Under the pieces are notes generated by a model that did no database searches, was not told where the DNA came from, and saw only the letters and a list, made by a program, of their open reading frames with translations. From the NCBI GenBank assembly GCA_001791305.1, contig MGEI01000005.1:404208-468207 (forward strand): a stretch of 64,000 nt of DNA, given 5' to 3'. Shown piece by piece: positions 8,179-40,509 of the stretch. The stretch's first letter is position 1. Every line of letters begins with the position of its first letter. The DNA comes from Candidatus Uhrbacteria bacterium RIFCSPLOWO2_01_FULL_47_17 (GTDB lineage: Bacteria; Patescibacteriota; Patescibacteriia; UBA9934; GWF2-40-263). A program made the translations under genes and the position numbers.

Positions 8179-8431
8179 TTACGTTTGTGGTGCATGGACG
8201 GCTCGCGAACCGCCCCTACGTTGACAAACCTCTTTTTTTCTGCTTTACTAGAATTAGTATGAACTTATTTTTTGCTCACATCACAGGGAAACCAATGTTC
8301 GCCGATTACTCCGTCGAACGTACTTTTATTTTCCCGGTTTGTGATGCATTGATTTAAGGTATTTTCCTAGAATCAGTCCAAGATCAACCCGGGAAACCGG
8401 GTTGTTTTGTTTGTAGTGCATCGATGAACTG

Positions 8432-9700
8432 GTGAAAACTGGTTCTATCGATCGCGTTACTTTTTCGAAGAAAACGGGTGCAGATGTCCTGCAAACGGTT
8501 GCTTCGTGCTGCTCTTTGGAGGAATTCGTGCGCACTGAACACAAATATTATTTGTATGACGCGGTTGTTGATTTCGGACTCGCGATGACCGTTACGGCTT
8601 ACGCGCCGTTTCTTATTTCGATCGGACTCACACTCGGCGAAGTCTCGCTCATCAACGCGTTCTTCTGGCTCACAATCGTCCTTGCGGAAATTCCAACCGG
8701 GATGCTCGCGGACGGGAAGAGTCGGGCGTGGTCGCTCAAAATGGGATGTGTATTTTTCACTCTCGGTGCATTTGCTTATCTGTTTGCGAACGGATTTTGG
8801 AGCGCACTCGTTTGCGAGTGTGTAATCGGAATCGGCATGGCGTTTTTCTCGGGAGCCGAGCAGGCGTGGGTCACAGACGCGCTTCATCGCGAAGGTCGCG
8901 ATCATGAACGTCGCAAGGTCTTTGCGACCGCGGGTGTGATCCGTGGATTCGTGATGGTTGTTGGTGGATTTCTCGGATCGATCTTCGCCCTCTCGAACGC
9001 ACGACTCATCTGGCTTCCGATGATCATCACCTCGCCGCTTGCATGGCTCGTGGTTCACAAACTCATGAATGGACAAGGAGAGCCGATTCACAAGATGACC
9101 GAAGTCGAAGCGTTGCGCGCGAGTGTGTCGCTTCTGAAATCGAATCGATCGCTCAAGTGGGTGATTGGAATGATGTTCGTGTTTGGTGCCGTCATATCGT
9201 TCAATCACTTTTGGTCGCCGTATTTCCAACCGCTCGTTGGAACGATGGGGCTTTCCTGGGTGTGGGCGATCATGTATATCGGTCTCGCGCTTTCCGCCGT
9301 TATCGTTCGTCGTCTCTCGATTCCTCAAGGGCAAGAAGCGGCATGGATTGCGGCATCGGTTGTTGTGACCGGTATTGGTCTTGGGGGTGTAGGTCTTTCC
9401 TCCGGCCTTCTTCTTCCGCTCTTTATGGCGACCATGCATGAATGCGGCCGTGGAATGCTCGGTCCGCTCGTCGATTCGTTTGTGCAACATCGCGTTGAAA
9501 GCGGATACCGCGCAACGTTCGGCTCGCTTCAATCTCTTCTCGGAAAGATCAGCCTCGCGATTGTGCCGGCTCTCATCTGGCTCACAATTCGTCATGATCC
9601 AAACACGCCCGAGACGATCCGCTTCGTCTGGTTTGTGTGCGGACTCGTTCTGATCATTGGATCGCTCATGTTGTTTCTTGTGCGTCCACGAAACGCATAA
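8432..9700 (+). CDS. MFS transporter
   Basis: Hydrophobic TM helices throughout (~400 aa; a 12-TM topology was not counted). The first TM may begin near residue 40, so the true start may lie downstream of 8432 or use a non-ATG codon. Confidence 0.55.
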   Translation: MKTGSIDRVTFSKKTGADVLQTVASCCSLEEFVRTEHKYYLYDAVVDFGLAMTVTAYAPFLISIGLTLGEVSLINAFFWLTIVLAEIPTGMLADGKSRAWSLKMGCVFFTLGAFAYLFANGFWSALVCECVIGIGMAFFSGAEQAWVTDALHREGRDHERRKVFATAGVIRGFVMVVGGFLGSIFALSNARLIWLPMIITSPLAWLVVHKLMNGQGEPIHKMTEVEALRASVSLLKSNRSLKWVIGMMFVFGAVISFNHFWSPYFQPLVGTMGLSWVWAIMYIGLALSAVIVRRLSIPQGQEAAWIAASVVVTGIGLGGVGLSSGLLLPLFMATMHECGRGMLGPLVDSFVQHRVESGYRATFGSLQSLLGKISLAIVPALIWLTIRHDPNTPETIRFVWFVCGLVLIIGSLMLFLVRPRNA

Positions 9701-9746: not shown

Positions 9747-10037
9747 CTAAACCGTTCGCTTGCCTTTCAACGTATCCTTCAGCGCTTTTCCTGCTTTAAA
9801 CTTTGGTACAACAACGCTTGGAATAGTGATCGGCTCGGATGGTTTTTGTGGATTCACACCAATGCGTCCTTTGCGTTCGCGTGCAGAGAAGGTTCCGAAT
9901 CCTGCGATGGTAACCTCGCCGCCGTTTGCGAGTTCGCGTGTAACGATCTCTTCAAACAAGGCGATGAAATCATCGGCGAGTTTTTTGGAGATCTGTAATT
10001 TTTCCGCGATCCGAGTCGCGAGATCAGCTTTATTCAT
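9747..10037 (-). CDS. hup: DNA-binding protein HU
   Basis: MNKADLATRIAEK...GFGTFSARERKGRIGVNPQKPSEPITIP; a 96-aa HU/IHF fold. Confidence 0.85.
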   Translation of the reverse strand: MNKADLATRIAEKLQISKKLADDFIALFEEIVTRELANGGEVTIAGFGTFSARERKGRIGVNPQKPSEPITIPSVVVPKFKAGKALKDTLKGKRTV

Positions 10038-10058: not shown

Positions 10059-11687
10059 TTACCTTGCGTATTCAATCACGCGTGTCTCGCGGATGATGGT
10101 GACTTTAATTTCTCCAGGATAGCTGAGTTCGGATTCAATCTTATTCGCAATATCTTTTGCAAGTTGGTAACTCGCCAAATCTGAGATTTTTTCTGGGTGG
10201 ATGAAGATACGAACCTCGCGTCCCGCTTGAATCGCATAAACTTTCTCAACGCCTTCGAAGGATCCCGCCGTGCGTTCCAATTCTTCCATGCGTTGAATGA
10301 AGTTCTCGAGAGACTGCTTGCGTGCTCCTGGGCGTGCTCCGCTAATCGCATCCGCCGCTTTTACGATCGCACCTTCAATCGTTCGAGGTCGGTCTTCATG
10401 GTGCGCGATCGATTGATAACAAATCTCTTCCGGGAATCCGAACTTCTTCATGATGTTGTATCCAATTTCTGGATGCGCACCTTGCATGTCGTGGTCTACT
10501 GCCTTGCCGATATCGTGGAAGAGTCCACCTTTTTTACAGATGAACACATCTGCACCAAGTTCTTCTGCCATCATTCCGGCGAGTGTTCCAACTTCAATCG
10601 AGTGTTGAAGCGCGTTTTGTCCGTAGCTGGTACGGAAGCGCATACGGCCAAGGATTGAAACAAGTTTTGGATCGATCGAAGAAACAGGAATTCCAAGTTG
10701 GTACAGTGCATCTTCTCCGTTCTTTTTCAATTCTTGCGCAAGAGATTTCTTTGCTTCCATGATGGATTCTTCGATACGTGCTGGTTGAATGCGTCCGTCT
10801 TTGATGAGCGCATCGAGCGCGCGCTTTGCGACTTGGCGACGAATAGGGGAGAATCCGCTGATCGTAATCATGTTTGGCGTGTCGTCGACAATGATTTCTG
10901 TTCCGGTTTGAAGTTCAATCGCTTTGATGTTGCGTCCTTCTTTTCCAATGATACGTCCTTTCATTTCGTCATTTGGAAGTTCGACGGCGGTGGTTGTTCC
11001 GTCAACAGAGACAGAGGATGCAAATCGGGTGATGGCGAGTGAAAGAAGTTTGCGAGATTTGATTTCGACTTCTTCTTCCGTAATCTCATCCATTTTGCGC
11101 AAACGACTCTGCAATGCTTCTTGTGAGTCGACCTCGATCTGCTTCAACAAACGCTCTTCTGCTTGTTCTTTTGTGAGTTTTGCAATCTCTTGCAGCTTTT
11201 CGTTTTGTTCAAGTTTGATGAGTTCAATACTCACCTTCACATCTTCGATCTGTTTTTTCTGATCTTCAAGTTTCGTTTTCTTGTCTTCGATCTCGATCAA
11301 TTTCTGATCAAACAATTCTTCACGTTTTTCCAAACGCTTTTGTTGTTCTTGGAGTTCGCGTCGGCGTGTTTGTTCTTCTTGCTTGGCTTCTTCAATCATC
11401 TTGATCGATTTTTCTTTTGCTTCGATCAGGTACTCTTGTTGTTTTGTCTTTGCCTCGTTTAACAGTTCTTGGTGTTTTGCTTTTGCCTCTGTAATAATTT
11501 TTTCTGCGCGATTTTCCGCATCATCGGCAAGGCGTGCAGCTTGGGCTTTGCGATAGGCATATCCCGCAGCTGCTCCGCCACCGAGTCCGATGAGGAGTAG
11601 AAGGATTGAAATAAACATATAATAAAACTTCTCAAATCTTGAGAAGTTCAAACCAGGCTCCGAGGATTCTCGAAGTGGAGTATTCAA
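10059..11687 (-). CDS. rny: Ribonuclease Y
   Basis: N-terminal TM helix followed by a long coiled coil (KEQAEERLLKQIE...), a KH domain (IIGKEGRNIKAIE) and an HD domain (LFHDIGKAVDHD), in a 542-aa protein. Confidence 0.85.
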   Translation of the reverse strand: MNTPLRESSEPGLNFSRFEKFYYMFISILLLLIGLGGGAAAGYAYRKAQAARLADDAENRAEKIITEAKAKHQELLNEAKTKQQEYLIEAKEKSIKMIEEAKQEEQTRRRELQEQQKRLEKREELFDQKLIEIEDKKTKLEDQKKQIEDVKVSIELIKLEQNEKLQEIAKLTKEQAEERLLKQIEVDSQEALQSRLRKMDEITEEEVEIKSRKLLSLAITRFASSVSVDGTTTAVELPNDEMKGRIIGKEGRNIKAIELQTGTEIIVDDTPNMITISGFSPIRRQVAKRALDALIKDGRIQPARIEESIMEAKKSLAQELKKNGEDALYQLGIPVSSIDPKLVSILGRMRFRTSYGQNALQHSIEVGTLAGMMAEELGADVFICKKGGLFHDIGKAVDHDMQGAHPEIGYNIMKKFGFPEEICYQSIAHHEDRPRTIEGAIVKAADAISGARPGARKQSLENFIQRMEELERTAGSFEGVEKVYAIQAGREVRIFIHPEKISDLASYQLAKDIANKIESELSYPGEIKVTIIRETRVIEYAR

Positions 11688-12564: not shown

Positions 12565-12733
12565 AATATTCGAATCATACTCGACCGATTGGGCTTTGAC
12601 AAAAGTTCGGGTGCACTTGATTTCATTGACCATTCCCCCCTTTTCTTATACACTCGTCGACAACTGCCAGATTTATTTTTATTTCATGCATGGGTACTCA
12701 TAAAGGGCACCCCTACGATCGTTTCGGCCCCAT

Positions 12734-14782
12734 TTGCCTATGAACATTACCGAACTTGCCCGTCGTCTTCGTGTCCGTCCGGATGAACTCTTGCAGAAAT
12801 TGCCAGAGCTTGGTTTTGCGGTTGGTGCACGCGCCATCAAAGTGGATGACCGCCAAGCGCAGAAAATTATGGAGGCGTGGGCGGAAATGTCTCGTAAAGA
12901 GCGTTTGGCGCGCAAAGTGGAAATGCAAAAGGCACATTCGGGCACGCGTCTTGAAATGCCGGAAGAAGATCGTAAGCCGGTAAAGATTCCGGCGATTACG
13001 ACGGTGCGTGATTTCGCATCGTTGTTGGATTTGTCTGTGCCACGCATCATGCAAGAGCTCATGAAGAACGGAATTCTTGCGAGTATCAACGAACGCATCG
13101 ACTTCGACACAGCTTCGATCATCGCGGAAGATCTTGGATTCCGCGCGGAGCTTGATACGGATACAAAAAATAATAACGAAGACACATCGGGAATTGATAA
13201 AATTCGCGAACGTTCGGATAGCGAAAAGAAAGAAGACTTGGTTACGCGTCCGCCGGTTGTGGTTGTCATGGGACACGTTGACCATGGAAAAACAAAATTG
13301 TTGGATGCCATCCGCACCACAAACGTGATGGCAACAGAAGCGGGTGGAATTACGCAGCACATTGGTGCATATCAAGTGGAACGCAACGGTCGTCATCTGA
13401 CATTTATCGACACGCCAGGTCACGAAGCGTTTACGGTTATGCGTTCGCGTGGTGCAAAGGTTGCGGACATTGCCATTCTTGTGGTCGCAGCTGATGATGG
13501 AGTGCAACCACAAACAAAAGAAGCGATTAACATTATCAAATCCGCAAACCTTCCATTCATTGTTGCGCTCAACAAGATCGATAAAGAAGGAGCAAACATT
13601 GATCGCGTGAAAGGTGAGCTTGCAGAATTGAACATCACCGCAGAAGATTGGGGTGGTTCGAGTATTATCGTTCCTGTGTCTGCGCGAGAAGGAAAAAACA
13701 TCGATCAACTCCTCGACATGTTGCTCCTCGTTACAGACATGGAGAAAGATCGTATTGTTGCAAATCCAAATGCACGCGCGATTGGAACCGTTGTCGAGTC
13801 TCATGTTGATACAGGAACGGGTCCTGTTGCAACCGTGCTCGTTCAAAGCGGAACCCTCAGTGTTGGCGACACATTGTCGATTCGCGACACACTTTATGGC
13901 CGCGTTCGCGCCATGAAAGATTGGAATGGAAAAACACTTTTGAAAGCAACGCCATCCACACCGGTTGAGATTGTTGGATTTAAAGTGGCGCCGGCTGTTG
14001 GGGATGTTATGGATGTTCCAAATCCATCCAAAGAATTGAAAAAAATGAAAGCCACAGACAGCTCGATGAAAGCCACGGAAGAAATGGCGTCTATTCATCG
14101 CACACAAGCGCAGTCCGAAGAATCAAAAACAGAAGAAGGGAAAAAGCATGTTTTGCCACTCATCATTCGTTCAGACGTTCTCGGGTCTCTCGAAGCGATT
14201 CTTGGAATGATCGACAAAATTAAACATGAAGATGTTTCTGTCAAAGTGATTAAGAAAGGTCTTGGAAACATTACCGACACGGACGTTCAAGATGCAGAAG
14301 CGGGTGGAGCCATCATCATGGCGTTTAACACACGTCCAAGTGGAACGGCAGAAATCCTTGCGCGCGACAAACACGTCTCTATTCGCAAGTACGACATTAT
14401 CTACAGACTATTTGATGATGTGATTGAAGAGTTGAAGAAGCTGCTTCCAGCAGAACTCATCATCACAGAACTTGGTGGATTTGAAGTGGTGAAAGTCTTC
14501 CGCAAAACAGATCATGGATTTATTGTGGGAGGAAAAGTAAAGAAATCAAAAATCTTGCCAAAAACAAAATTGCGTATTTCACGTAATGGAGAGTATGTTG
14601 GTGAAGGAGAAATTCTCGTGCTCCAACTTGGCCCCGGTGAAATCAAAGAAGGACAACCCGGACAAGAAATTGGATTGTCGTTCAAAGGAAAAGTAAAACC
14701 AGAAGAAGGGGATATCTTTGAAACGTACACAGAAGAGAAGATCACAAAATTATTTAAAATTGAAGGCATTGACGCGCGTTAA
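12734..14782 (+). CDS. infB: Translation initiation factor IF-2
   Basis: G-domain motifs [25 protein letters not shown] and NKID, within a 682-aa protein. Confidence 0.9.
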   Translation: MPMNITELARRLRVRPDELLQKLPELGFAVGARAIKVDDRQAQKIMEAWAEMSRKERLARKVEMQKAHSGTRLEMPEEDRKPVKIPAITTVRDFASLLDLSVPRIMQELMKNGILASINERIDFDTASIIAEDLGFRAELDTDTKNNNEDTSGIDKIRERSDSEKKEDLVTRPPVVVVMGHVDHGKTKLLDAIRTTNVMATEAGGITQHIGAYQVERNGRHLTFIDTPGHEAFTVMRSRGAKVADIAILVVAADDGVQPQTKEAINIIKSANLPFIVALNKIDKEGANIDRVKGELAELNITAEDWGGSSIIVPVSAREGKNIDQLLDMLLLVTDMEKDRIVANPNARAIGTVVESHVDTGTGPVATVLVQSGTLSVGDTLSIRDTLYGRVRAMKDWNGKTLLKATPSTPVEIVGFKVAPAVGDVMDVPNPSKELKKMKATDSSMKATEEMASIHRTQAQSEESKTEEGKKHVLPLIIRSDVLGSLEAILGMIDKIKHEDVSVKVIKKGLGNITDTDVQDAEAGGAIIMAFNTRPSGTAEILARDKHVSIRKYDIIYRLFDDVIEELKKLLPAELIITELGGFEVVKVFRKTDHGFIVGGKVKKSKILPKTKLRISRNGEYVGEGEILVLQLGPGEIKEGQPGQEIGLSFKGKVKPEEGDIFETYTEEKITKLFKIEGIDAR

Positions 14783-30107: not shown

Positions 30108-32072
30108 TTAGAGGTTGACTTCTTCGATCCAAGCCGTGAGGACAACGTCCGCAGGAGCGCGCCAGTCACCGCGAGGCGAGAGCGACACGCTTGCGATCTT
30201 CGGGCAGTCCGGCAGGTTTTGCCGTTTGAATTGTGCGTTCGAGAATCGCTTCAGGAACGCGAGCAACCATTTCAGAATCGTGGCGCGATCGAATTCTCCC
30301 GCGAACGTGAGTTCGGCGAGCCAAGCAATTTTTCGCGGCGCGTATCCATTGCGGATCATGTGCCAGAGGAAAAAGTCGTGCAGGATGTACGGACCGATGA
30401 TGTCTTCGGTTAGTTGCTCGATTTCGCCAGCCTTCTTTGCTTTCACAAGTTCTGGCGAAACGGGCGTCGCGAGAACGTCGAGGATCGACGTGCGGATTTC
30501 CTTGAAGAGCTCGATGTCCGCCGCGTGGCGAACAAGGTATTTCACGAGCGTTTTCGGGATGTCGCCGTTTGGATTGTACATCGACTGTTGATCGCCGTTG
30601 TACGTGCACCAACCTTGCGCGATTTCCGAGAGATCGCCCGTGCCAATCACGAACCCGAGGTCCATGAGAATGTGCGTGCGTTCACGCGCTTGCGCGTTCT
30701 CACACTGCAGGCACGTCCAGCACGGCTCGTGGCCAATGCTGCGAAGATGAGTCGTCACATTCTTCACAATCGAAATGTCTTTCCAGGTGACGCCGGTTTG
30801 CTGAATGAGCTTCAGCGCATTTTTCTTTGTGCGCTTCGAAGTGCCAGCGCCCGGCATCGTCACCGCAAGGATGCCCTTGCGATCCCAACCGAGTTCGTCA
30901 AACGCGCGAAGTGTGAAGAGAAATGCGAGAAGCGAATCGAGTCCGCCCGAGATGCCGATGACAACCTGACGTTTCGTCACGTTTTCGACACTCAAGAGTT
31001 TTCGCTTGAGCGCGGTCACGGCGTGGGCGAAGATGTCTTCGCACCGTTCGGCGCGTAGCTTGTCATCCGACGGAACAAACGGGAGTTTGTTCAGGGGGAC
31101 GATCGGACGCACCGCGATCGCATCGTCGGACGATTTGATCGTGCACTCGATCCGATGGAACGTTTTCGGATCGACCATCGAGGTCTGACCGAAACTTCCG
31201 GACATGAATCGCTCGCGTTCGAGCTTCTCGACATCAATGTCTGTGATGAGGAGTTGCGATTCGAACTGAAACGGTTTGGAGCGAATCCGCAGATGGCCGT
31301 TTTCGGCAATCATCGCGTCGCCGTCAAAGATGACATCGCCGGACGATTCCCACGGACCAGACGAGACGTACAAGTACGCACTCATGCAGCGCGCCGACTG
31401 TTGCGTCACGAGGTCTTTGCGATACGCTCCCTTTCCAATCTCGCTGTTTGAAGCAGAGAGATTGGTGAGGATCGTCGCGCCCGCATTCGCCATGTGCGAA
31501 CTCGGAGGAATCGGCATCCAGACGTCTTCACAGATTTCCGTGCCGAGACAAAAGATGCGGTGCTTGCTCGAACCCGTGCCCACGAACACATCTATCACGT
31601 GATTCGTTCCAAACGGAACACGCTGTCCGCAGAGTTCCACTTCCGAAATAGTCGCTTCATACGATGGTCGAAACCATCGGCTTTCGTAGAAGTGCTTGTA
31701 GTTCGGAATGAACGTCTTTGGCGTCACACACAAGATCTTGCCCTTGTGGCAGGTCACTGCAACATTGAACAACTTTTGGTTCACGAGCAGTGGCATGCCG
31801 ACTTGGATGATCATGTCGATCGCGTCTGTTAGATTGAGAAACAACTGAAGTTCCTCGACGGCTTTCTTGTGGAGAAATGGTTGCAAGAACAAATCGCCGC
31901 AGGTGTAGCCGGTAAGCGAGAGTTCTGGAAACGTGAGCAACTGTACACGCTCATGTTCAGCATTCCCAACAAGTTTCATCATCTCAAACACATTCATACG
32001 TGGATTTGCAACGTGCACTCTCGGCACCGCAACCGCCACACGAACAAGACCAAACGTATTCTTGGGTTTCAT
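30108..32072 (-). CDS. nadE: Glutamine-dependent NAD+ synthetase (N-terminal CN-hydrolase domain plus C-terminal NAD synthetase)
   Basis: Nitrilase-type N-terminus (LLTFPELSLTGYTCGDLF), C-terminal PP-loop VIGISGGLDS and a GGAGG SD. The start was chosen at the internal Met, giving 654 aa. Confidence 0.85.
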   Translation of the reverse strand: MKPKNTFGLVRVAVAVPRVHVANPRMNVFEMMKLVGNAEHERVQLLTFPELSLTGYTCGDLFLQPFLHKKAVEELQLFLNLTDAIDMIIQVGMPLLVNQKLFNVAVTCHKGKILCVTPKTFIPNYKHFYESRWFRPSYEATISEVELCGQRVPFGTNHVIDVFVGTGSSKHRIFCLGTEICEDVWMPIPPSSHMANAGATILTNLSASNSEIGKGAYRKDLVTQQSARCMSAYLYVSSGPWESSGDVIFDGDAMIAENGHLRIRSKPFQFESQLLITDIDVEKLERERFMSGSFGQTSMVDPKTFHRIECTIKSSDDAIAVRPIVPLNKLPFVPSDDKLRAERCEDIFAHAVTALKRKLLSVENVTKRQVVIGISGGLDSLLAFLFTLRAFDELGWDRKGILAVTMPGAGTSKRTKKNALKLIQQTGVTWKDISIVKNVTTHLRSIGHEPCWTCLQCENAQARERTHILMDLGFVIGTGDLSEIAQGWCTYNGDQQSMYNPNGDIPKTLVKYLVRHAADIELFKEIRTSILDVLATPVSPELVKAKKAGEIEQLTEDIIGPYILHDFFLWHMIRNGYAPRKIAWLAELTFAGEFDRATILKWLLAFLKRFSNAQFKRQNLPDCPKIASVSLSPRGDWRAPADVVLTAWIEEVNL

Positions 32073-32162
32073 GTTGTCTCCTTCCTGATTTTCGCATACC
32101 GACACGATTGTCAGTGGGCGAAGAAAAGGGGCGATGTAAACATCGCCAGATCGTATCGTGTC

Positions 32163-32192
32163 CGTAGGGGAGGGTCGCGACCCTCCCCTACG
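32163..32192. repeat. Family-C palindrome CGTAGGGGAGGGTCGCGACCCTCCCCTACG between the radical SAM gene and nadE
   Basis: Paralog of 1703..1726 with the same AATGC flank. Confidence 0.6.
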
Positions 32193-32205
32193 AATGCGCA
32201 TCGCA

Positions 32206-33165
32206 TCAATACAGAATATCGCCGTTGTGATCCCAGTTGCGGTAACCGTGACCGTCGGGCTTGTGCACGATCGACTTCATGACCGTACCGCCGTTTGCTT
32301 CTTCGCAGCGCGCAAACGTGACGTTCACGCCATGCGACTGCTCGTCGAAAATCCCGCCGACCAGGAACACAGGCGTGCCCCACGGAAGCGGATTGCCGAT
32401 GCGGACGCCGTGTTCCTTGTTCATACCGAACTCGGTGAACGCGGTCTGGAGCGGCGCGATGTCGATCCAGTTCGTCGCATTCCAGTCGATCACTTCCTGC
32501 GTCGCGCGGCCAACCGATTCCGGTCGCCATACTTCGCGGATGACCACCATTTGCACGCCGAGGTTGCCGAGCACACGAATGTACTCGAGAATCCCAGCCG
32601 TATTTTTCACACCTGACTTGTTGATGACAAGCGACGCGCGAACCATGAGTCCAAAGCTTCGACAACGTTGAATCAACTCCGCCGGCGACTTCTTGATCAA
32701 CATGAGTTCACGATTCTGTTTGAAGTCGTGACTCGCGATCGAGAGCGTGATCATGGTGAGACCAGCATTGACGAGATCCGGAAGTAGATATTCTCTTGAA
32801 ATGGACGGTGGTAGATTGGGTTGGAACAAGTAACCGTTCGTATGCATGTCCACGAGCGGAAGATAACGACTGCATTCTTTCACAACACTCACGAGGTACT
32901 CAGCTTTTTCCTGACTTGGATCCGCACGCCCTGTGAGGATCGCGTGCGTTGCGCCCGTGCGTTCTGCAAATCGCAGACCGACACGAAGACGCTTCAAGCC
33001 ACAGAGCTTCACAAGCTTCTCGTCTTCAACCTCCGTCCCGGGCGTTGTGCGACTGATGCAAAACTTGCAACCAGCTGTGCAACGCTCGCGGGTAGAGAGC
33101 TGAATCGAAATGCTTTGTGCGCGCATCTGTCCAGAACCGTGAGCGATTTGCTGATGGTCTGCCAT
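32206..33165 (-). CDS. Radical SAM protein of unknown function
   Basis: CTAGCKFC (a Cx3Cx2C motif) near the N-terminus and an AAGGTGAAGGAG SD. Confidence 0.55.
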   Translation of the reverse strand: MADHQQIAHGSGQMRAQSISIQLSTRERCTAGCKFCISRTTPGTEVEDEKLVKLCGLKRLRVGLRFAERTGATHAILTGRADPSQEKAEYLVSVVKECSRYLPLVDMHTNGYLFQPNLPPSISREYLLPDLVNAGLTMITLSIASHDFKQNRELMLIKKSPAELIQRCRSFGLMVRASLVINKSGVKNTAGILEYIRVLGNLGVQMVVIREVWRPESVGRATQEVIDWNATNWIDIAPLQTAFTEFGMNKEHGVRIGNPLPWGTPVFLVGGIFDEQSHGVNVTFARCEEANGGTVMKSIVHKPDGHGYRNWDHNGDILY

Positions 33166-33248
33166 TGAATGAACTCCTTCACCTTCACACGTCGACGAAA
33201 TTGTCGGCGGGTGGAGAAAAGGATGATGCATGTGCATCATCAAGCCTG

Positions 33249-33962
33249 TTAATCCATTTCCACTCCATGTTCTTCGCCATCCATATCGTCATCACCGCGC
33301 TCATCTTCGAACGGATAGGCGGCATCGTCGCTAGAGACACCCTCGCAATCACAGGAGTGATCGATGACCTCGTTCAGACGAACGATCTTGCGTTCGAGGA
33401 GCTTCAAGCGAATGTATTGAATGAATGCGAGCACGCGCAGGTCGTCGCAGACGAACGTTTCGAGATCTTTTGTTGAGACCCAGTGACGGGTGATCCCTTC
33501 GTTCTCGCCTTCCGCGCTGCGAACGTCATCGTCCTTGCCCGTAAGTTGTTCGGGGCGTACCTCGGCATAGCAAAGGTATGCACGTTCGGTGAGGACACCA
33601 ATCGATAGCACCATGCTTTGGCCGAAGTTCAACATCTCGATGTCATCCTCCGTGAGGTCAACTCCGACTTCTTCCATCGCTTCTTTGATGAGAAGTTGTT
33701 TGGGCGAAAGTTTTACATCGAATCGACCCGCAAACGGCGTGACGAGCGTGCCGTGCGGATTCTCGTCTGACATCGCCGCAACGTGATCTTGCCTGATGAG
33801 CAAAATGCGTTCGTTGACGACATCGTGGAGAACTCCCGCAACAGAATCCGTTGTCCGGATGAATTCATTCAAGAATCGATTGCCGGGTTTTAGCCAGCGC
33901 TCCAGTATGACAAACCCTTTGTGAGGGATGTCGACCAGAACGGGAAGCGGTTTGTTTGCCAT
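33249..33962 (-). CDS. Nudix hydrolase (ADP-ribose/NAD-related pyrophosphatase candidate) with an acidic C-terminal tail
   Basis: Nudix box GRFDVKLSPKQLLIKEAMEEVGV. The SD is nearly identical to that of the radical SAM gene. Confidence 0.6.
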   Translation of the reverse strand: MANKPLPVLVDIPHKGFVILERWLKPGNRFLNEFIRTTDSVAGVLHDVVNERILLIRQDHVAAMSDENPHGTLVTPFAGRFDVKLSPKQLLIKEAMEEVGVDLTEDDIEMLNFGQSMVLSIGVLTERAYLCYAEVRPEQLTGKDDDVRSAEGENEGITRHWVSTKDLETFVCDDLRVLAFIQYIRLKLLERKIVRLNEVIDHSCDCEGVSSDDAAYPFEDERGDDDMDGEEHGVEMD

Positions 33963-34037
33963 CGTTGTTTCCTTCACCTTCACATGCCGACACAATTGTC
34001 AGCATGCGGAGAAAAGGGGTGATTGAATCACCCAGGT

Positions 34038-34069
34038 TATGGGCGGGGTCACCAGACCCCGCGACGAAT
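34038..34069. repeat. Family-B palindrome TATGGGCGGGGTCACCAGACCCCGCGACGAAT downstream of pncB
   Basis: Near-identical to the copy inside leuS. Confidence 0.65.
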
Positions 34070-35325
34070 CAGACCAAACACGTAACATTTACATGTTCGT
34101 ATCGATCGTAATTCGTCAGTCGTTTCACACGCAGTACAGCAGATGTGCGGCCGGTCAGTTTCTTTCGGTTGTCCGAGAGTTTGACGGTTGCGCGTCCCGA
34201 GATGTGAGTGAGCTTGCAGACAATCGAGAGTGCTTTCAGTCCGCGATTGTTTTCGTAATTCTGGAAACCCATGTTGTTGCCAAGGTTCGTGCCCCAGCCA
34301 AACGCGAGTTTGATGCGACCGCGGAAGTGCGCGTTCAATTGCACGATGAGTCGTGCGTCGAGACCGTCCGAGAAGACAATGAGTTTCGTCTTTGGATCGA
34401 TTCCGATCAACTCGTAAAACTTGATGATCTTTTCGCCGTATGCAAACGGGTCGCCGGAATCGTGACGTGTTCCGATCCACAGCTCGGCAAACGCCTTGAA
34501 GTGTTCGAGGAAGTAGTCCGAGCCGTACGTGTCCGAAAGCGCGATCGAAAGGATGGTGCCGTAGAGTGCAAACCATTGTTCGAGGAGCAGATCGTGCGAG
34601 TACATGTACCCGCGTGCGTCGTCCTCTTTGTGGTAAATGCCTTGATAGCCCATGTCCATTTCGTGGGCGATGGTGCCGATCGCTTCAATGCCGAGTTCAA
34701 GCGCGATCCAGATGTTGGATGTGCCCGCAAATTGTTTGCCCATTGTTGCAGCACAGGTTGCAACAACTTCGAACTGCCAATCATAGCTCCACCGACGACG
34801 CGTGCTGAAATCTGTGACGACGGCGTCCGATTCCATGACAATGTCGATGTTCTCGATGAGCTTGTCGCGGCCCGAGGCAATGACTTCTTCTTCCGTGAGC
34901 CCGAGCTCTTTGCACTTTGCGCGGAAGTAGATGCGATTGACCACGTTCATGATGAACGTTTCCCACATCGTGATTGCGGTCCACTTGCCCTGCGCGTAAA
35001 TGGCGAGCTTGCCTTTCACCACGCCGACATGAATGTCCGAGAGCTTGTAGCTGCGAAGCCACGTAAGGAACGCAGGCTGCAGTTGTTTGCCAAGGGTTGG
35101 ATGATTCCGAAGGCGTTCGATCATGCCCTGCGTCATCGTCATCTGCTTGATGTGGTCGAGTTCCGCTTGGACTTGTTCGACCGTCATGTAATTGAGCAGA
35201 TTCACATCTGTCCGATTTTTGAACGTGAAGCGTCCCTTGCGTTTGCGCTGATGGAGCCAGATGAACTGGAGCATCATCAGTTTGTACTTGTCTGTATCGA
35301 GTAAGTTCTTGACGATGTCGAACAT
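34069..35325 (-). CDS. pncB: Nicotinate phosphoribosyltransferase
   Basis: MFDIVKNLLDTDKYKLMMLQ (cf. pncB's DTDxYKLTM), ~418 aa, AGGAGG SD. Confidence 0.75.
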   Translation of the reverse strand: MFDIVKNLLDTDKYKLMMLQFIWLHQRKRKGRFTFKNRTDVNLLNYMTVEQVQAELDHIKQMTMTQGMIERLRNHPTLGKQLQPAFLTWLRSYKLSDIHVGVVKGKLAIYAQGKWTAITMWETFIMNVVNRIYFRAKCKELGLTEEEVIASGRDKLIENIDIVMESDAVVTDFSTRRRWSYDWQFEVVATCAATMGKQFAGTSNIWIALELGIEAIGTIAHEMDMGYQGIYHKEDDARGYMYSHDLLLEQWFALYGTILSIALSDTYGSDYFLEHFKAFAELWIGTRHDSGDPFAYGEKIIKFYELIGIDPKTKLIVFSDGLDARLIVQLNAHFRGRIKLAFGWGTNLGNNMGFQNYENNRGLKALSIVCKLTHISGRATVKLSDNRKKLTGRTSAVLRVKRLTNYDRYEHVNVTCLV

Positions 35326-35371: not shown

Positions 35372-35506
35372 AGAAATGTGCCCCCGAATGCGTTCCACGA
35401 AGCCCCTCCTGCGAAGGAGGGGTTGGGGGAGGTTGCGCTCAGGAAAACGTTTCTTGAAGGAAAAATGTTCCCGGGGCTGAATGATTCAACCCCGAGACGA
35501 GATGAC

Positions 35507-36895
35507 TTACAATTCGCTGATGCGACGTTGCAAATCTGTTTCTGGAAAGAAGGCGAGTTCTGCGGTTGCGGTTGCGCTTCGACGAATATTCATCCAGTTT
35601 AGTTCGCCAAGCGCGACGCCGTCGCAGAAACCGCGCATAGGGCGCTTTTCTTGGTTCATGGCTTCGAATCGAATGCTTGTTTCGATCGGAAGCGGTTCGT
35701 TCTTCCAATGATGGGAGCACACGCAGCTTCCAACAAGTTGGAGCATTTGTGTGCCGGGGATGAGGCGTGATCCGCCCATGCGGTACGCATACCCCGTTGA
35801 TCCAGCCGCCGTTGAGACGAGCATGATGTCTGACATGATGGGATCGAATTTCACTTCGCCGTTCATGAGGACACGTGTCCAAATTGTTTGCCCGCTGAGG
35901 CGATCCACCCATGCATCGTTGAATGCGAGCATGTTGGATTGTGTGCCGTCAACAGATTCCGCCTCTATGTATAACAGCGATTCTGTGTACGTCTTGAGTT
36001 CGAGGTGTGATTGCAGTTGATCAACAATCTTCGTTTCGTCGAAGTCGTTGAGCAAGAATCCTTTCGTGCCGCGATTGAGTCCGAGGAAGGGAACATGGTC
36101 ACGCCACAGACGACGAATCGTATGAAGCATGAATCCATCGCCCCCAATCACGACAATGCAATTGTGTTCACCGATGGGTGTCTGAAACGCATCTGATAAT
36201 CTCTTGCCGATCGCAACCGTACTTTCATTGCGGTCGTTTGCGACAACAAGCGGTCGAAGTGTTTCTTGAAATTCCGCAGGACCTCGCATGATGCGTCCCG
36301 TGAATAACTGATGTCGTGCGATGTATTGACCAATCGCTGGTGACACAAGATCGTCGATTGACTGATGCCTGAAGATCCGTTCGCGAATTTCCGAACTGGA
36401 TCCACGGAGCGTCGGTTCGATGATCGTGTGGTGTGGCGGAAGATCTTCGGGCACGCATTCGATTCCATGGCGCATGTGCACGAGGAAGTGAAGTGTGTTC
36501 CAGACTTCCTGTCCGCAAAACCACGTTCGATGAATCTCGGACAATCCATGCGCGCCACCGGCAACGATGTCGGCGCCGATCACGTGACAGATTTCATGAT
36601 TCGGATACAGCGCACGATAGCGCTGATCTATGTCGAACGAACGCGTAAACACAGATTGCTCGAGATCTGTGAGATCAATTTCGACACGCGGGATGCGGCC
36701 GAACGCGAGGTCACAGAGTGCTGCACGAGACGCAAGTGAAAGATCGTTCGTCGTCTCTTTGTCCGGTCGCGGCCCGCACGGAAGAACGATGAGACGATCA
36801 TCCGGTCCGAGCTTACTCGCAAGTTTCTGAACAATCGCCTCATGATGCAATCCCGGAGGATTGAAACTGCCACCGTACAGAAAAATCTTTGGCAT
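35507..36895 (-). CDS. Bifunctional NaMN/NMN adenylyltransferase (NadD-like) - NAD kinase (NadK) fusion
   Basis: N-terminal IFLYGGSFNPPGLHHEAI and SSEIRERI; C-terminal VVIGGDGFMLHTIR (GGDG) and TAAGSTGYAYRMGG; 462 aa. Confidence 0.7.
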   Translation of the reverse strand: MPKIFLYGGSFNPPGLHHEAIVQKLASKLGPDDRLIVLPCGPRPDKETTNDLSLASRAALCDLAFGRIPRVEIDLTDLEQSVFTRSFDIDQRYRALYPNHEICHVIGADIVAGGAHGLSEIHRTWFCGQEVWNTLHFLVHMRHGIECVPEDLPPHHTIIEPTLRGSSSEIRERIFRHQSIDDLVSPAIGQYIARHQLFTGRIMRGPAEFQETLRPLVVANDRNESTVAIGKRLSDAFQTPIGEHNCIVVIGGDGFMLHTIRRLWRDHVPFLGLNRGTKGFLLNDFDETKIVDQLQSHLELKTYTESLLYIEAESVDGTQSNMLAFNDAWVDRLSGQTIWTRVLMNGEVKFDPIMSDIMLVSTAAGSTGYAYRMGGSRLIPGTQMLQLVGSCVCSHHWKNEPLPIETSIRFEAMNQEKRPMRGFCDGVALGELNWMNIRRSATATAELAFFPETDLQRRISEL

Positions 36896-36915: not shown

Positions 36916-36960
36916 GCCCCCTCTCCCTTCGAGGGAGAGGGCTGGGGAGAGGGTTTGTCC
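36916..36960. repeat. Family-A element upstream of the nadD-nadK start
   Basis: GCCCCCTCTCCCTTCGAGGGAGAGGGCTGGGGAGAGGGTTTGTCC. Confidence 0.65.
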
Positions 36961-37042
36961 TTGCATTAAGCGTCTCACCTCTTGAGGCGCTTAAGAAAAG
37001 GGCAGAGCTTTGGAAAACTCTGCAAGTTGGAAAAAGTTCGTG

Positions 37043-37813
37043 CTACTCTTGGATGAATCTTTCCGCGATCAGGAGTTTACGGAGGATATGCGGGCTCGAT
37101 TTGTCGACGACGTAGAGGTTCTCTCTTTTATCGGCGAACGTGCCAGCGACGAGTTCGGCGGCGATCTCGTCTGCCGCACGACCCGAGCCTTTCACCACAA
37201 TGGTGGGCCAACCTTTCTTGATCGAGCGCATGACTTCATCGCGCGTGATCGCACCGCCGTTCCAGGCAATGACGCCGGCGCGGTGGAAGCCGCCGTATTG
37301 CGTGAGCTGATCCATGAGTCCGAACGCGGCATCCAAGTCGCCATCCCAACCGAGCTTGCCTTCCGCCCCGTCTTGAACGAGGAGGATTGCGTTCATGCTC
37401 GGGTTTGGCGCGGTGCCGTAGTCGTCGAGTACGAGGCGAGACTCTTCGACGAGACGCAGAACGTCCGTGCGAGGAGTCGAACCGAGTGCGACACACTTTG
37501 GATTGCCCGCGGCAACAACGCCAGGAACATCTGTGACCATCGGATCGAGGTTGCCGTCTTTGTCGAATTGGCGCGTGCCACCCGACCAGATCATGCCCTC
37601 GAAACCCTTGAATGCGATCTGGAAAAAATCCATCATCGCTTTCTTATCATCGGCATTCATCCCTTTGCATCCGCCGCTGATGCGAATGCAGACTTTACGC
37701 GCCGCACGCGTTGCCATGAGGGCGAACGTTGCGGGGAGTTGAGCTCCCTTGTCTTGAATGATCAGAACAGTCCTGCCGTCCTGACCAGTTACCGTTTTTG
37801 CGGACATGAACAC
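37043..37813 (-). CDS. SLOG/LOG-like Rossmann-fold protein, paralog 1
   Basis: RISGGCKGM..., WSGGTRQFD..., WNGGAITRDEV... and VVKGSGRAADEI parallel the LOG motifs GGG.G.M / PGG.GT.EE. Confidence 0.4.
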   Translation of the reverse strand: MFMSAKTVTGQDGRTVLIIQDKGAQLPATFALMATRAARKVCIRISGGCKGMNADDKKAMMDFFQIAFKGFEGMIWSGGTRQFDKDGNLDPMVTDVPGVVAAGNPKCVALGSTPRTDVLRLVEESRLVLDDYGTAPNPSMNAILLVQDGAEGKLGWDGDLDAAFGLMDQLTQYGGFHRAGVIAWNGGAITRDEVMRSIKKGWPTIVVKGSGRAADEIAAELVAGTFADKRENLYVVDKSSPHILRKLLIAERFIQE

Positions 37814-37858
37814 CTTCGCACTTCCTAATTTTCCACACCCATGATTTCACGGACGCAG

Positions 37859-38605
37859 TTACTCCGGGGGAAGCATCCCGAAGGAAATGAGATGTTGGCG
37901 AATGTCGCGCGAATCTTTTTCGGCGACACGAACGTTTGGATGTGCTTCGAGAAACGCATTGTTGCTCGCGTACTCATCCGCCTTGCGACCACTTCTTCGT
38001 ATGAGGAGGACGGGCCAACCACGTTTTGCGGTTGCGAGGATTTCGCGTTCCGTCACGCCACCGCCGTTGTAGACGATGAGCAATGATTTGAATTCCGCGA
38101 ACTCGCGCAGGTCTTTCGTGATCTGCAAGCACTCTTCGAACTCCGCGTCCCAAATGGCCGGTTGATCCGGCGACACTTGAACGAGCAGGCACATATCTTG
38201 GTTCGGATGAATGATGGTGCGATAGGTATCCGCATCACTCTCCGAAACCACGAGTCCGTGTTCCGTGATTTTGATCTCCGACGTCCTCGGCACAACGCCG
38301 AGTGACACCATGTTTGGACACACGTCGCGAATGTGCGACGGAATCTCGGTGATCCCAGGCACAATCTGCGACACGTCTTGTTTCTGAATCATGCGCGTGC
38401 CACCAAAGAGCATGGCGCCTGCAAATCCAGCGAATGCATCTGCGAAGAGCGAAAGAAAATCCCGCGCATCCTCGGCGGACATGTATCCACATCCGCCCGT
38501 GAGTCGTACAACAACTCGATTGCGAGCGGTCGTGAGTCTCAGAGCGATCTTTACTGACCGGTCTCCTTGATTCTTCACGAACAAGGAGGGAATGATGTGT
38601 GACAT
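37859..38605 (-). CDS. SLOG/LOG-like Rossmann-fold protein, paralog 2
   Basis: RLTGGCGYMSAED, LFGGTRMIQ, YNGGGVTEREI and LLIRRSGRKADEY share their motif order with paralog 1 (37043..37813). Confidence 0.4.
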   Translation of the reverse strand: MSHIIPSLFVKNQGDRSVKIALRLTTARNRVVVRLTGGCGYMSAEDARDFLSLFADAFAGFAGAMLFGGTRMIQKQDVSQIVPGITEIPSHIRDVCPNMVSLGVVPRTSEIKITEHGLVVSESDADTYRTIIHPNQDMCLLVQVSPDQPAIWDAEFEECLQITKDLREFAEFKSLLIVYNGGGVTEREILATAKRGWPVLLIRRSGRKADEYASNNAFLEAHPNVRVAEKDSRDIRQHLISFGMLPPE

Positions 38606-38751
38606 CGTGTTCTCCTTGTGTTTGTGAACCTTCGATTTCAGAACCTCATGGTTGAGGTGCTGAAGAAAAGGGCTCTGTCATTTCTTTTTGCGGATCTGTA
38701 TGTGCAAGCGGAAATGGAGAGCAGGGGAGAGTTGAGAAAGAGCGAAGAGAC

Positions 38752-39510
38752 TTAGACGTGGATCTGATTCGAGTTGATGCACTCCACGCCGCGAGCGATG
38801 AGGCGCGCTTCCATGAAGGCAATCGAACCCGGGTAGTCGCCATCGGGAGGCAAGCCAACCGAACGCGTGCCGTCGCGGACGATGTAGGACTCGAAGCCTT
38901 CGAGTGCGGCGTCTTCGGCCGTGAAGCCAACGCAGAAGTCGAACGCGAGACCGACGATGAACACGCGCCTGATGCCGCGCTCCTTCAGAATGCGACCGAG
39001 TCCGGTCGGCATCCAAAGCGTATCGCGAAACGCGCTGTAGCTGTCGACACGCGGATCCGTTCCTTTCGGAAAGTGCAGAACGAACGCGCTCTCGAGATCA
39101 CGCAAGCCATCGAAGAGACGAATCTCGTTCGTGGTCATTTCGGCATGTTCGTCCCAGAGGAGCGTTTCGTGCCGATTCAGGCGCATGAGGTAAGCGATCA
39201 AGTCTTCATTGGTGAAGAGTGCATGTTTCGCGATCTTGACCTTGTGACCCAAAACTTCCGTGATCGTGAGCGGACCGCGAGCCCGCTTCACGTAGGAGGT
39301 TCGATAGTTGATGTGTCCTTTCGGATGCGCGTCAAAGACGTTGTATCGCTGATTGCGCTTGAATTTCAGAACGAGCTCTCGGATGACATCGACGATTTCA
39401 AGGGCGCCAGGCACGGGCAGTCCGCCATTTGGACCGAATGCATTTGTGACATCGACCACGATGACAGCATCGCCTTTGCCGATCTGAATCAAACCATCAA
39501 GGTTCCGCAT
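38752..39510 (-). CDS. pncA: Nicotinamidase (isochorismatase-like cysteine hydrolase)
   Basis: VIVVDVTNAF...VFDAHPKGHINY...VFIVGLAFDFCVGFTAEDA (catalytic Cys); GAGGAG SD. Confidence 0.7.
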   Translation of the reverse strand: MRNLDGLIQIGKGDAVIVVDVTNAFGPNGGLPVPGALEIVDVIRELVLKFKRNQRYNVFDAHPKGHINYRTSYVKRARGPLTITEVLGHKVKIAKHALFTNEDLIAYLMRLNRHETLLWDEHAEMTTNEIRLFDGLRDLESAFVLHFPKGTDPRVDSYSAFRDTLWMPTGLGRILKERGIRRVFIVGLAFDFCVGFTAEDAALEGFESYIVRDGTRSVGLPPDGDYPGSIAFMEARLIARGVECINSNQIHV

Positions 39511-39725: not shown

Positions 39726-39760
39726 AAGTAAGTGTAGTACATACACTTACTTGTGTCAAG
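39726..39760 (-). promoter_or_regulatory. pncA promoter (minus strand TTGACA-N17-TACACT) overlapped by the perfect inverted repeat AAGTAAGTGTA-gtaca-TACACTTACTT
   Basis: The 11-bp palindrome arms span the -10 element and spacer, as expected for a repressor operator. Confidence 0.45.
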
Positions 39761-39818: not shown

Positions 39819-40487
39819 TTACATTATCTCTACATATTCCAGCTTCTTGTGCTTGAACTTATAGAGCTCCGCCGGGCGGTTTGCCTCGCCGCCTCGTTTC
39901 TTTCCAATCGGAACGATCAGATCAAGAGCCAAAATGCGCTTACGGAAGTTGCGTTTATCAACAGTTGTATCAAGAATAATCTCGTAAACACGCTGTAAAT
40001 CTGTGAGGGTGAACTCTTCGGAAAGCAGGCTCCAGGCGATGTTTGTGTACTGGAGTCGGCTTTTGAGCCGTGTAATTGCTTCTTTTGCGATGTGCTTATG
40101 ATCATAAGCCAATTCCGGGAGTTTTTTCACGGGCCACCACTTCACGTCTTGGTACTTATCGGTTGTTTTGAGCTCGACTTCCGATGAGGAAATAAGCGCA
40201 AACGACGCGACCGAGATCACACGCTCGAGTTGATCGCGTTCAATGGAATCAAACGTTTTGAGCTGTTCGAGGTAGACGTTCGAAACACCGGTTTGTTCTT
40301 TTAAGATCCGAACGGCCGTCTCTTCGGTTGTCTCTGTATTCTCGACGCGTCCGCCAGGGAAGGCCCAGAGTCCTGTATACGGCGACTTTTTCATTTGGAT
40401 GAGAAGGGCGCAGAGTTCGCCGTCTTTGACGGTGAAGATGACGGTATCAACCGCGACGATGATCGATTGCTTTGGGGGATTGGGCAT
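39819..40487 (-). CDS. nrtR: NrtR-like Nudix-related transcriptional regulator of NAD metabolism (Nudix plus C-terminal wHTH)
   Basis: Nudix box GGRVENTETTEETAVRILKEQTGV. The C-terminal ~90 aa (FTLTDLQRVYEIIL...RNFRKRILALDLIVPIGKKR...) fits the NrtR winged-helix domain. It heads an NAD-salvage gene array. Confidence 0.55.
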   Translation of the reverse strand: MPNPPKQSIIVAVDTVIFTVKDGELCALLIQMKKSPYTGLWAFPGGRVENTETTEETAVRILKEQTGVSNVYLEQLKTFDSIERDQLERVISVASFALISSSEVELKTTDKYQDVKWWPVKKLPELAYDHKHIAKEAITRLKSRLQYTNIAWSLLSEEFTLTDLQRVYEIILDTTVDKRNFRKRILALDLIVPIGKKRGGEANRPAELYKFKHKKLEYVEIM

Positions 40488-40494
40488 ATTTGTT

Positions 40495-40509
40495 TGTGTA
40501 AATTACACA
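40495..40509. promoter_or_regulatory. Perfect palindrome TGTGTAA-A-TTACACA immediately upstream of the nrtR start (candidate autoregulatory operator)
   Basis: Perfect 7-bp arms, sitting in the divergent nrtR / 40583 intergenic region. Confidence 0.4.

Follow-up and report, generated by a model that had tools for sequence, protein, structure and literature searches.

Tandem SLOG-fold paralogs of the TRPM type in an NAD salvage operon of Patescibacteria: a candidate heteromeric enzyme of pyridine nucleotide turnover

The question raised by this locus is what two small, mutually divergent paralogs do in the midst of a bacterial operon for NAD salvage. The locus lies in a 64,000-nucleotide stretch of DNA, here called the window, of Candidatus Uhrbacteria bacterium RIFCSPLOWO2_01_FULL_47_17, a member of the candidate phyla radiation (GenBank assembly GCA_001791305.1, contig MGEI01000005.1, positions 404,208 to 468,207), and had been singled out by an earlier, sequence-only reading, which noted the span 37043-38605; this span runs exactly from the stop of one open reading frame (ORF), A, to the start of another, B. 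The two genes are 45 nt apart and are listed below; a plus-strand ORF that overlaps A (37010..37828) is a shadow frame. The answer that we favor, tentatively and with more doubt than confidence, is that A and B would combine into a heteromeric enzyme with an NAD-derived mononucleotide as substrate, the most plausible activity being that of a nicotinamide mononucleotide (NMN) nucleosidase.

LSDAT-B: 37859..38605, minus strand, 248 amino acids, ATG start with an AAGGAG ribosome-binding site (RBS); upstream paralog, TRPM-type SLOG protein (PF18171)
LSDAT-A: 37043..37813, minus strand, 256 amino acids, GTG start with an AGGAAG RBS; downstream paralog, TRPM-type SLOG protein (PF18171)

Both proteins were found to belong to a known domain family. 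In the Pfam search, LSDAT_prok (PF18171, ‘SLOG in TRPM, prokaryote’) scored 40.8 bits with A and 29.7 bits with B, both above the gathering cut-off of 25.4, and most of the A and B orthologs carry the same annotation in precomputed form. The eukaryotic family LSDAT_euk (PF18139) scored 24.6 bits with A, just under its gathering cut-off of 25.7, and gave no match with B in this search, while the LOG family (PF03641) matched neither protein at E<=1. In the NCBIfam search, the LOG-like family TIGR00725 was retrieved at E 0.007 over 50 residues, with 15.9 bits against a cut-off of 106.9. The AlphaFold2 models, built from ortholog alignments, were of high predicted quality for both A (pLDDT 95.8, pTM 0.92) and B (pLDDT 94.2, pTM 0.92), and displayed the alternation of strands and helices of a Rossmann-like fold. 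When compared with the PDB by Foldseek, they matched almost only the MHR1/2 domains of TRPM channels (TRPM2 chanzyme, TRPM2, 3, 4, 5, 7 and 8), the best such match having an E-value of 3e-10 for A and 2e-8 for B, with a probability of 1.0 and a TM-score of ~0.6-0.68; the matches of A were TRPM2/4/7/8 MHR1/2, while the TRPM2 chanzyme and TRPM channels ranked highest for B. When the PDB was searched by sequence, it yielded TRPM2 and TRPM8 as well as 1rcu, a LOG-like protein of TIGR00725. Since the PF18171 scores and the TRPM MHR1/2 domains, as best matches in both structure and sequence, all point the same way, A and B are SLOG-fold proteins of the TRPM-type LSDAT branch and not members of the LOG family. 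The sequence-only reading was thus right in calling them SLOG-like, and in keeping with it the models are Rossmann-like and the profiles hit no unrelated family; its further likening of them to LOG proteins holds at the level of the SLOG superfamily and fails for LOG proper, given the missing PF03641 match and the absence of an MHxRK-type motif. As a side observation, the best structural matches of B also include 9nw3_6A, a protein of 256 residues that stands alone and belongs to the central pair of the ciliary tip (TM-score 0.60 on both lengths), by which stand-alone LSDAT-like proteins occur in eukaryotes as well.

The four motifs earlier proposed to be shared by the two proteins in the same order are all present, namely R-x-[ST]-G-G-C-x-x-M (A R44-M52, B R34-M42), GGTR (A 78-81, B 68-71), NGGxxTxxE (A 185-193, B 180-188), and GSGR or SGR (A 209-212, B 205-207); only the wording of the third as (W/Y)NGG..TR.E needed a slight correction for B, which reads NGGGVTEREI. 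All four are invariant or nearly so across 48 orthologs of each paralog (48 + 48); the first, in the Gly-rich loop that follows the first core strand, and the third, which comes after a later strand, are invariant. In the AlphaFold2 models, the invariant residues of A and B lie where a strand ends or a helix begins, and are predicted to line the canonical ligand crevice of Rossmannoid proteins, the putative nucleotide pocket being complete in each subunit. Judged by the models, the pocket would be whole in both proteins, with no sign of degeneration in either partner.

Individual pocket residues allowed a closer comparison with the LOG enzymes on one side and the TRPM channels on the other. 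The Glu of the third motif (A E193, B E188) aligns with that of GGEIGTAIE in 1rcu, i.e., the Glu of the LOG-type GGxGTxxE, where the aligned TRPM sequences have Thr or Ser (Thr in TRPM2). Where LOG has PGGxGTxxE, A has NGGAITRDE and B has NGGGVTERE, an altered version of the motif that lacks the Pro and the third Gly but has the Glu. The catalytic Arg of LOG enzymes resides in a motif of the MHxRK type that precedes the PGG strand; direct reading of A and B found no such Arg motif before the NGG strand, and the equivalent helix starts with W-x-G-D in A (156-159) or W-x-x-E in B (152-155). Thus, A and B share with LOG/PpnN (PF03641) and TIGR00725 (1rcu) the superfold, the order of motifs from the Gly-rich loop to GGxxTxxE, and the aligned Glu, but they lack the PF03641 match and the MHxRK motif, and in their Gly-rich loop, which has one residue fewer, there is a Cys that is invariant in both paralogs. 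The Arg of GSGR (A R212, B R207), in turn, aligned with R358 of human TRPM2 (by hmmsearch, gsgR of the A profile against GSGR358). The published zebrafish and human residue pairs Y271/Y295 and R278/R302 differ by a constant offset of 24, by which human R358 is zebrafish R334, a part of the N-terminal ADP-ribose (ADPR) pocket of TRPM2 (PMC7555694). The likeness to TRPM MHR1/2 (LSDAT_euk), and to the TRPM2 ADPR site in particular, extends from the best structure and PDB sequence matches to this Arg, and the association of A and B with a NUDIX ADPR hydrolase, described below, parallels the NUDT9H domain of TRPM2. Unlike the TRPM proteins, however, A and B are stand-alone proteins of ~250 amino acids, with no channel, ankyrin or MHR3/4 region, and they keep both the LOG-type Glu and the Cys of the Gly-rich loop.

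The relationship between the two paralogs was examined in orthologous loci, which were collected by a scan of GTDB genomes with a single peptide pattern (7 loci) and by a metagenome scan (41 loci), the latter, with contig look-ups, carrying the context analysis; at a 95% cut-off on A, the non-redundant loci number 46. A and B are 31% identical over 238 residues (E 9e-36), and profile-profile comparison of the two families returned an E-value of 4e-58. In 43 of the 46 loci, the gene that directly precedes A, in the same orientation, is B, the three exceptions being contigs that end at A; the order was B-then-A in 38/38 complete pairs. The median identity was 49% between A proteins, 49% between B proteins, and 30% between A and B, the two constituting separate, reciprocally distinct ortholog families. 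It follows that the duplication predates the diversification of these lineages and that both copies have been equally constrained, so the old duplication proposed earlier was borne out. The equal constraint and invariant pairing would fit an obligate hetero-oligomer. Nearly all orthologs were from Patescibacteria (Uhrbacteria, Falkowbacteria, Saccharibacteria, Absconditabacterales, and others), the closest ortholog of B, in Ca. Uhrbacteria, being 92% identical, and the family is rare, with 443 clusters at 50% identity (E<=1e-3) among 1.84 billion representatives.

The neighboring genes were then identified. All are on the minus strand, and their order is nrtR, pncA, B, A, a nadD-nadK fusion, nicotinate phosphoribosyltransferase (NAPRTase), NUDIX, radical SAM, and NadE, so that the pair does lie, as previously described, between pncA (upstream) and nadD-nadK (downstream).

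nrtR: 39819..40487, minus strand, NUDIX-related regulator of NAD metabolism (PF21906 NrtR_WHD 2.5e-24, NUDIX 5e-17)
pncA: 38752..39510, minus strand, nicotinamidase of isochorismatase fold, first gene of the B/A transcription unit (PF00857 2.3e-13; NCBIfam nicotinamidase/pyrazinamidase 1.5e-23)
nadD-nadK: 35507..36895, minus strand, fusion of nicotinate mononucleotide (NaMN) adenylyltransferase and NAD kinase, 462 amino acids (PF01467, PF01513, PF20143; NCBIfam NAD kinase 1.2e-38, NaMN adenylyltransferase 1e-24)
NAPRTase: 34069..35325, minus strand, PncB type (PF04095 2.8e-49, PF17767 5.8e-22)
NUDIX: 33249..33995, minus strand, divergent AdpP/NudK-like hydrolase (NUDIX 1e-3; TIGR00052 YffH/AdpP 3e-7)
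Radical SAM: 32206..33243, minus strand, orphan enzyme with the CxxxCxxC motif CTAGCKFC (weak Radical_SAM, MoaA and viperin-like similarity)
NadE: 30108..32201, minus strand, glutamine-dependent NAD synthetase (NCBIfam NF002730 1.2e-217, alignment beginning at residue 46)

The PDB matches of the NUDIX protein were NudK and ADP-ribose pyrophosphatase. Three of the ORFs are probably overcalled at the N-terminus: going by ortholog lengths, the start of the NCBIfam alignment and RBS positions, the real start would be an ATG at ~33962 for NUDIX and at ~33165 for radical SAM, and that of NadE would lie near 32066. NadD and NadK are also one fused protein in loci L012, L016 and L033 and separate genes in L057 and L058, whereas L003 has a stand-alone NadD of 211 amino acids.

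The regulator at the head of this cluster, NrtR, is ADPR-responsive, and its repression was reportedly found by Rodionov et al. in 2008 to be relieved by ADPR. The following signals were located upstream of pncA and nrtR:

39731..39759, minus strand: sigma-70-like promoter TTGACA-17-TACACT upstream of pncA (promoter scan, 10/12 matches)
39732..39746: palindrome TAAGTGTA-N5-TACACTTA, candidate NrtR operator, overlapping the -10 of the pncA promoter
40496..40508: palindrome GTGTAAATTACAC (GTGTA-N3-TACAC), candidate autoregulatory NrtR box, between the nrtR promoter and start codon

The pattern GTGTA-N(1-7)-TACAC was found twice in the 64-kb window, against 0.03 occurrences expected, and both are the two candidate boxes. 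A candidate operator consensus for the NrtR of this lineage would be TAAGTGTA-N5-TACACTTA, with an N3 spacer in the copy before nrtR. The same box occurs beside nrtR or NAD genes in L012 (8868), L021 (4278, 5021), L028 (4057), L029 (3369, 3407) and L033 (484), and the palindrome upstream of nrtR is kept at the same place in L003 and L012. There is no strong terminator between pncA, B and A, and the first strong terminator-like hairpin (35469..35497) comes after nadD-nadK; B and A would hence appear to be co-transcribed with pncA under the control of NrtR.

The fold and the operon bear together on a first rival explanation, which we regard as possible but rather unlikely, namely that the pair is a non-catalytic sensor or buffer, its heteromer binding ADPR or a related product of NAD breakdown in order to regulate or sequester; it might, for instance, modulate a salvage enzyme by protein contact, or buffer free ADPR beside NrtR and the NUDIX ADPR hydrolase. 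The closest solved structures are indeed the TRPM MHR1/2 domains, the top Foldseek matches including structures of TRPM2 with ADPR and of TRPM4 with ATP, and the Arg of the TRPM2 ADPR pocket is kept in both paralogs. The pair is linked, moreover, to the ADPR-responsive NrtR and to AdpP-type NUDIX, a NADAR gene is found near it in L008 and L036, and the combination of pair and NUDIX mirrors the LSDAT plus NUDT9H architecture of TRPM2, as portrayed in PMC7306681; SLOG domains as a class are presented, in PMC6459960, as sensors or processors of nucleotide signals. Nonetheless, the typical member of ~250 amino acids has no fused effector domain, no conserved partner gene was found across the loci, and NrtR already supplies ADPR sensing, while a catalyst would account at least equally well for full pockets under equal constraint in both copies and for the place of the pair among enzymes in the operon. 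The long homologs (P0074, P0087, P0096, P0409, and others) had no second Pfam domain. In two rare proteins, P0475 (801 amino acids) and P0494 (705 amino acids), a B-like LSDAT domain is C-terminal to a region of ~500 amino acids that has no Pfam match; the LSDAT domain of P0475 aligned with the B family at E 4e-47 (hhalign).

To place the pair in a broader genomic setting, neighbors within 7 kb were clustered all-against-all, and NAD genes were detected with the window's own proteins, for which reason the fractions with NAD context are lower bounds. NAD genes were the sole recurrent functional theme among the neighbors: NAPRTase was found in 7 non-redundant loci, NrtR in 6, PncA and NadD/NadK in 5 each, NadE and the AdpP-like NUDIX in 4 each, and radical SAM in 3. 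NrtR was the only NAD-related neighbor in L013, L021, L027 and L028, and the order in L029 was nadD-NAPRT-B-A, its two NrtR-like boxes lying in front. An NAD gene was present within 5 kb of the pair (<=5 kb) in at least 13 of the 46 loci, in 9 of the 24 with >=5 kb of total flank, and in 6 of the 15 with >=5 kb on both sides. The link to pyridine nucleotides that had been read from the position of the pair is therefore upheld insofar as NAD genes are its only recurrent neighborhood, and is weakened insofar as this context is facultative. One further locus, L015 (= L010; contig JACQII010000016.1), is binned as Aenigmatarchaeota and has the order B-A-NAPRTase-rSAM-NadE-NUDIX; its flanks are mixed, with bacterial-type genes (sigma-70, ParB, PP2C, PPK2) and archaeal ones (SBDS, proteasome alpha, TrmB), so that either the cluster as a whole passed from one domain to the other or the assembly is chimeric.

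A second rival explanation, which we rate as improbable, is that the pair is a general nucleotide 5'-monophosphate phosphoribohydrolase, similar to PpnN or AMP nucleosidase, which would furnish ribose-5-phosphate and bases to salvage-dependent episymbionts, its adjacency to NAD genes merely reflecting a common need for phosphoribosyl pyrophosphate (PRPP). In its favor, the pair stands alone or beside unrelated genes in most loci, and some loci contain a PurA-like enzyme or an HD_4 hydrolase related to (p)ppGpp hydrolases (the latter in L020 and L034/L044 by sequence and in L013 by Pfam annotation); a PRPP synthetase, furthermore, is part of the NAD cluster of L057. However, the only recurrent neighbors are NAD genes, especially the dedicated regulator NrtR, genes of purine or pyrimidine salvage do not recur beside the pair, and the catalytic Arg motif of LOG is absent.

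A second, partly conserved context was also observed, in Saccharibacteria-like and other loci (L008/L025, L027, L028, L043, L047, L036), its genes being a long PurA-like adenylosuccinate synthetase paralog (543 amino acids), a von Willebrand factor A (vWA)-like protein, a DnaJ-kinase, Fic, and NADAR. In 3-4 distant loci (L008/L025, L027, L043), a Pol-beta-type nucleotidyltransferase of 644 amino acids adjoins the pair, together with the PurA-like and vWA-like genes. This Pol-beta/PurA-like context resembles nucleotide-centric conflict systems, in the context of which Burroughs et al. reportedly defined LSDAT_prok in 2015. We accordingly considered a third rival, very improbable in our estimate, by which the pair belongs to a nucleotide-signal system of defense or counter-defense and senses or degrades a signal nucleotide made by the neighboring nucleotidyltransferase, the NAD operon being its secondary home; the presence of Fic and NADAR nearby would also suit it. 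What speaks against such a role is that searches of PADLOC and PHROGs with A, B, NUDIX and radical SAM gave nothing save one weak QueE-like match for radical SAM, and that no relative was encoded by the candidate stretches of the viral contig scan. Likewise, no effector (SIR2, transmembrane/SLATT), TIR or CD-NTase domain was detected by Pfam in the window cluster, and no TIR, SIR2 or SLATT effector lies nearby. The vertical conservation of the pair across Patescibacteria, in the same order and under equal constraint, is moreover unlike that of patchy defense islands. A parallel may be drawn to Thoeris ThsA, a sensor of 3' cyclic ADPR, and to YpsA, both of which have SLOG-fold domains tied to NAD-derived ligands; A and B differ from them in having no SIR2 or transmembrane effector, no TIR partner and no PADLOC match, and in their housekeeping salvage context.

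We return, then, to the proposal that A and B form an enzyme. On the model of the LOG enzymes, which work as dimers, the two would function jointly in one obligate hetero-oligomer, and their ligand would most likely be a product of NAD turnover that contains ribose-5-phosphate, of the NMN or ADPR class. The activity envisaged is a LOG-like hydrolysis of the N-glycosidic bond (NMN + H2O -> nicotinamide + ribose-5-phosphate), after which the nicotinamide would be taken over by PncA, which is co-transcribed, and subsequently by NAPRTase, NadD-NadK and NadE, such that the pair would close the pyridine nucleotide cycle in fully salvage-dependent organisms. This proposal is favored because the LOG-type Glu is kept, two intact pockets are predicted, the operon position is among enzymes, and salvage dependence is complete. 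It also draws on larger NAD clusters of Patescibacteria that have no LSDAT pair within the 17-kb loci fetched, in L057 (1094-13239) and L058 (3308-12190). The order in L057 is NadD, PncA, a 310-amino acid gene of no named family, NadK, NAPRTase, a fusion of a nucleoside-deoxyribosyltransferase (NDT)-like domain with NUDIX, His-phosphatase, radical SAM, ADP-ribosylglycohydrolase, PRPP synthetase and NadE; in L058, an unnamed gene of ~313 amino acids precedes PncA, and the NDT-like-NUDIX fusion, His-phosphatase and PRPP synthetase were not called. Since the NDT-like domain is from a family of nucleotide N-glycosidases, its fusion to NUDIX in a pair-less NAD cluster suggests that these clusters include an N-glycosidase step, performed there by another N-glycosidase-type fold, and the fusion may be a functional analogue of the LSDAT pair plus NUDIX. 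Lastly, a place for such an enzyme was listed as open in the E. coli pyridine nucleotide cycle in 2005, where the NMN glycohydrolase had its ‘gene not yet identified’ (PMC1249556).

Several observations weigh against this proposal. The nearest structural relatives of A and B, the TRPM MHR1/2 domains, are ligand sensors and not enzymes, and both the PF03641 match and the MHxRK-like catalytic Arg are wanting. The motif Glu does not separate an enzyme from a sensor, since it is also kept in the non-catalytic SLOG sensor of ThsA. Catalysis, as well as the ligand and the heteromeric state, is something that we infer. In the adequately flanked loci, ~60% had no NAD gene within 5 kb, the NAD context being facultative and occurring in ~30-40% of loci; some loci have alternative neighbors instead (Pol-beta nucleotidyltransferase, PurA-like, NADAR, Fic), and in the stand-alone loci the stretch just before B contained no NrtR-like box, only L047 having two sites with one mismatch. 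The proposal can also be carried further, to a doubtful extension, in which B/A would be an N-glycohydrolase of NMN, or of an ADPR-derived nucleotide, whose fold animals would later have recruited as the ADPR sensor of TRPM2, the ‘LSDAT + NUDT9H’ pairing of that channel deriving from a prokaryotic NAD-recycling module in which such a pair lay beside a NUDIX ADPR pyrophosphatase.

The spaces between the genes of the operon contain a recurrent, conserved element, two copies of which flank the B-A pair:

38625..38675, minus strand: intercistronic hairpin element, core GCCCTTTTCTTCAGCACCTCAA, copy 1, ~20 nt upstream of the RBS of B (covariance model 67.8 bits)
36954..37005, minus strand: intercistronic hairpin element, copy 2, between A and nadD-nadK (covariance model 65.8 bits)

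The element precedes each of B, nadD-nadK, NUDIX, radical SAM and NadE, and is composed of a variable hairpin, CCCTTTTCT(T/C), a second hairpin, GAAGG, and the RBS, with looser copies on the minus strand near 34009..34018, 33213..33222 and 32121..32130. The two copies that flank the pair have a 22-nt core in common, which has no other occurrence in the window (0 expected) and is conserved in three related genomes, L003, L012 and L016, where copies of the element lie at 8419-8470, 9133-9184 and 12894-12948 (L003), 9933-9983 and 11606-11656 (L012), and 1029-1080 and 2729-2780 (L016). RNAalifold returned a conserved hairpin of 15 pairs, 5 of them with compensatory changes. For the 10-mer CCCTTTTCTY, 0.3 occurrences would be expected in the window and 5 were found; the four on the minus strand all fall within the NAD operon, whereas the fifth, at 12638, is the reverse complement of the ribosome-binding region of truB and is unrelated. 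The element matched no family in Rfam, and it could be a signal for RNA processing or stability, an attenuator, or a small riboswitch-like switch.

Two further features of the locus deserve mention. Between the window and its closest relative, L012 (10802-11572), the A proteins share only 69% identity, against 84-92% for B and the flanking genes; a recombination swap of A was considered and rejected, as blastn gave a single continuous high-scoring segment pair of 82% identity across nrtR-pncA-B-A and no evidence of a breakpoint, and A thus appears to evolve faster here than B and the flanking genes. The radical SAM protein, which is 100% identical to one from the metagenome-assembled genome of Candidatus Uhrbacteria RIFCSPHIGHO2_12_FULL_47_12, is a member of a large orphan family of Patescibacteria found in NAD clusters (L057 8001-8963, L058 8001-8960, L015 12202-13131); it is placed between NAPRTase/NUDIX and NadE in the window and beside ADP-ribosylglycohydrolase, PRPP synthetase and NadE elsewhere, and we know of no described pathway of NAD salvage that has a radical SAM step.

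As to what is new in these findings, the domain family itself is already known, having been defined, reportedly, by Burroughs, Zhang, Schaffer, Iyer and Aravind (NAR 2015), and to our knowledge none of its members has been characterized experimentally. The credit to Burroughs et al. 2015 is also given in PMC13143021 and PMC6459960. A and B conform to LSDAT_prok in scoring above its gathering threshold and in having the predicted fold and motifs, but they differ in that, in Patescibacteria, two stand-alone paralogs of ancient divergence make up an obligate tandem, which recurs in Preiss-Handler NAD salvage/NrtR operons and is not fused to, or paired with, effectors. In the searchable literature there was no description of the obligate B-A tandem, its largely Patescibacteria-restricted distribution, or its embedding among NrtR and Preiss-Handler genes, although Burroughs et al. 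2015 may already note such a context; the tandem and the NrtR/NAD-operon embedding are thus apparently new.

Patescibacteria, like the DPANN archaea, are salvage-dependent episymbionts, which makes the supply of NAD a point of dependence on the host, and it is in the NAD recycling operons of Patescibacteria that this conserved yet rare two-gene module is found. Should the pair prove catalytic, it would fill an orphan step that makes nicotinamide for PncA, and LSDAT proteins would gain their first enzyme. Should it prove a sensor, the ADPR-binding domain of TRPM2 would have in it its simplest stand-alone relative, and that pocket a tractable model. As the pair consists of two small soluble proteins, both outcomes are directly testable.

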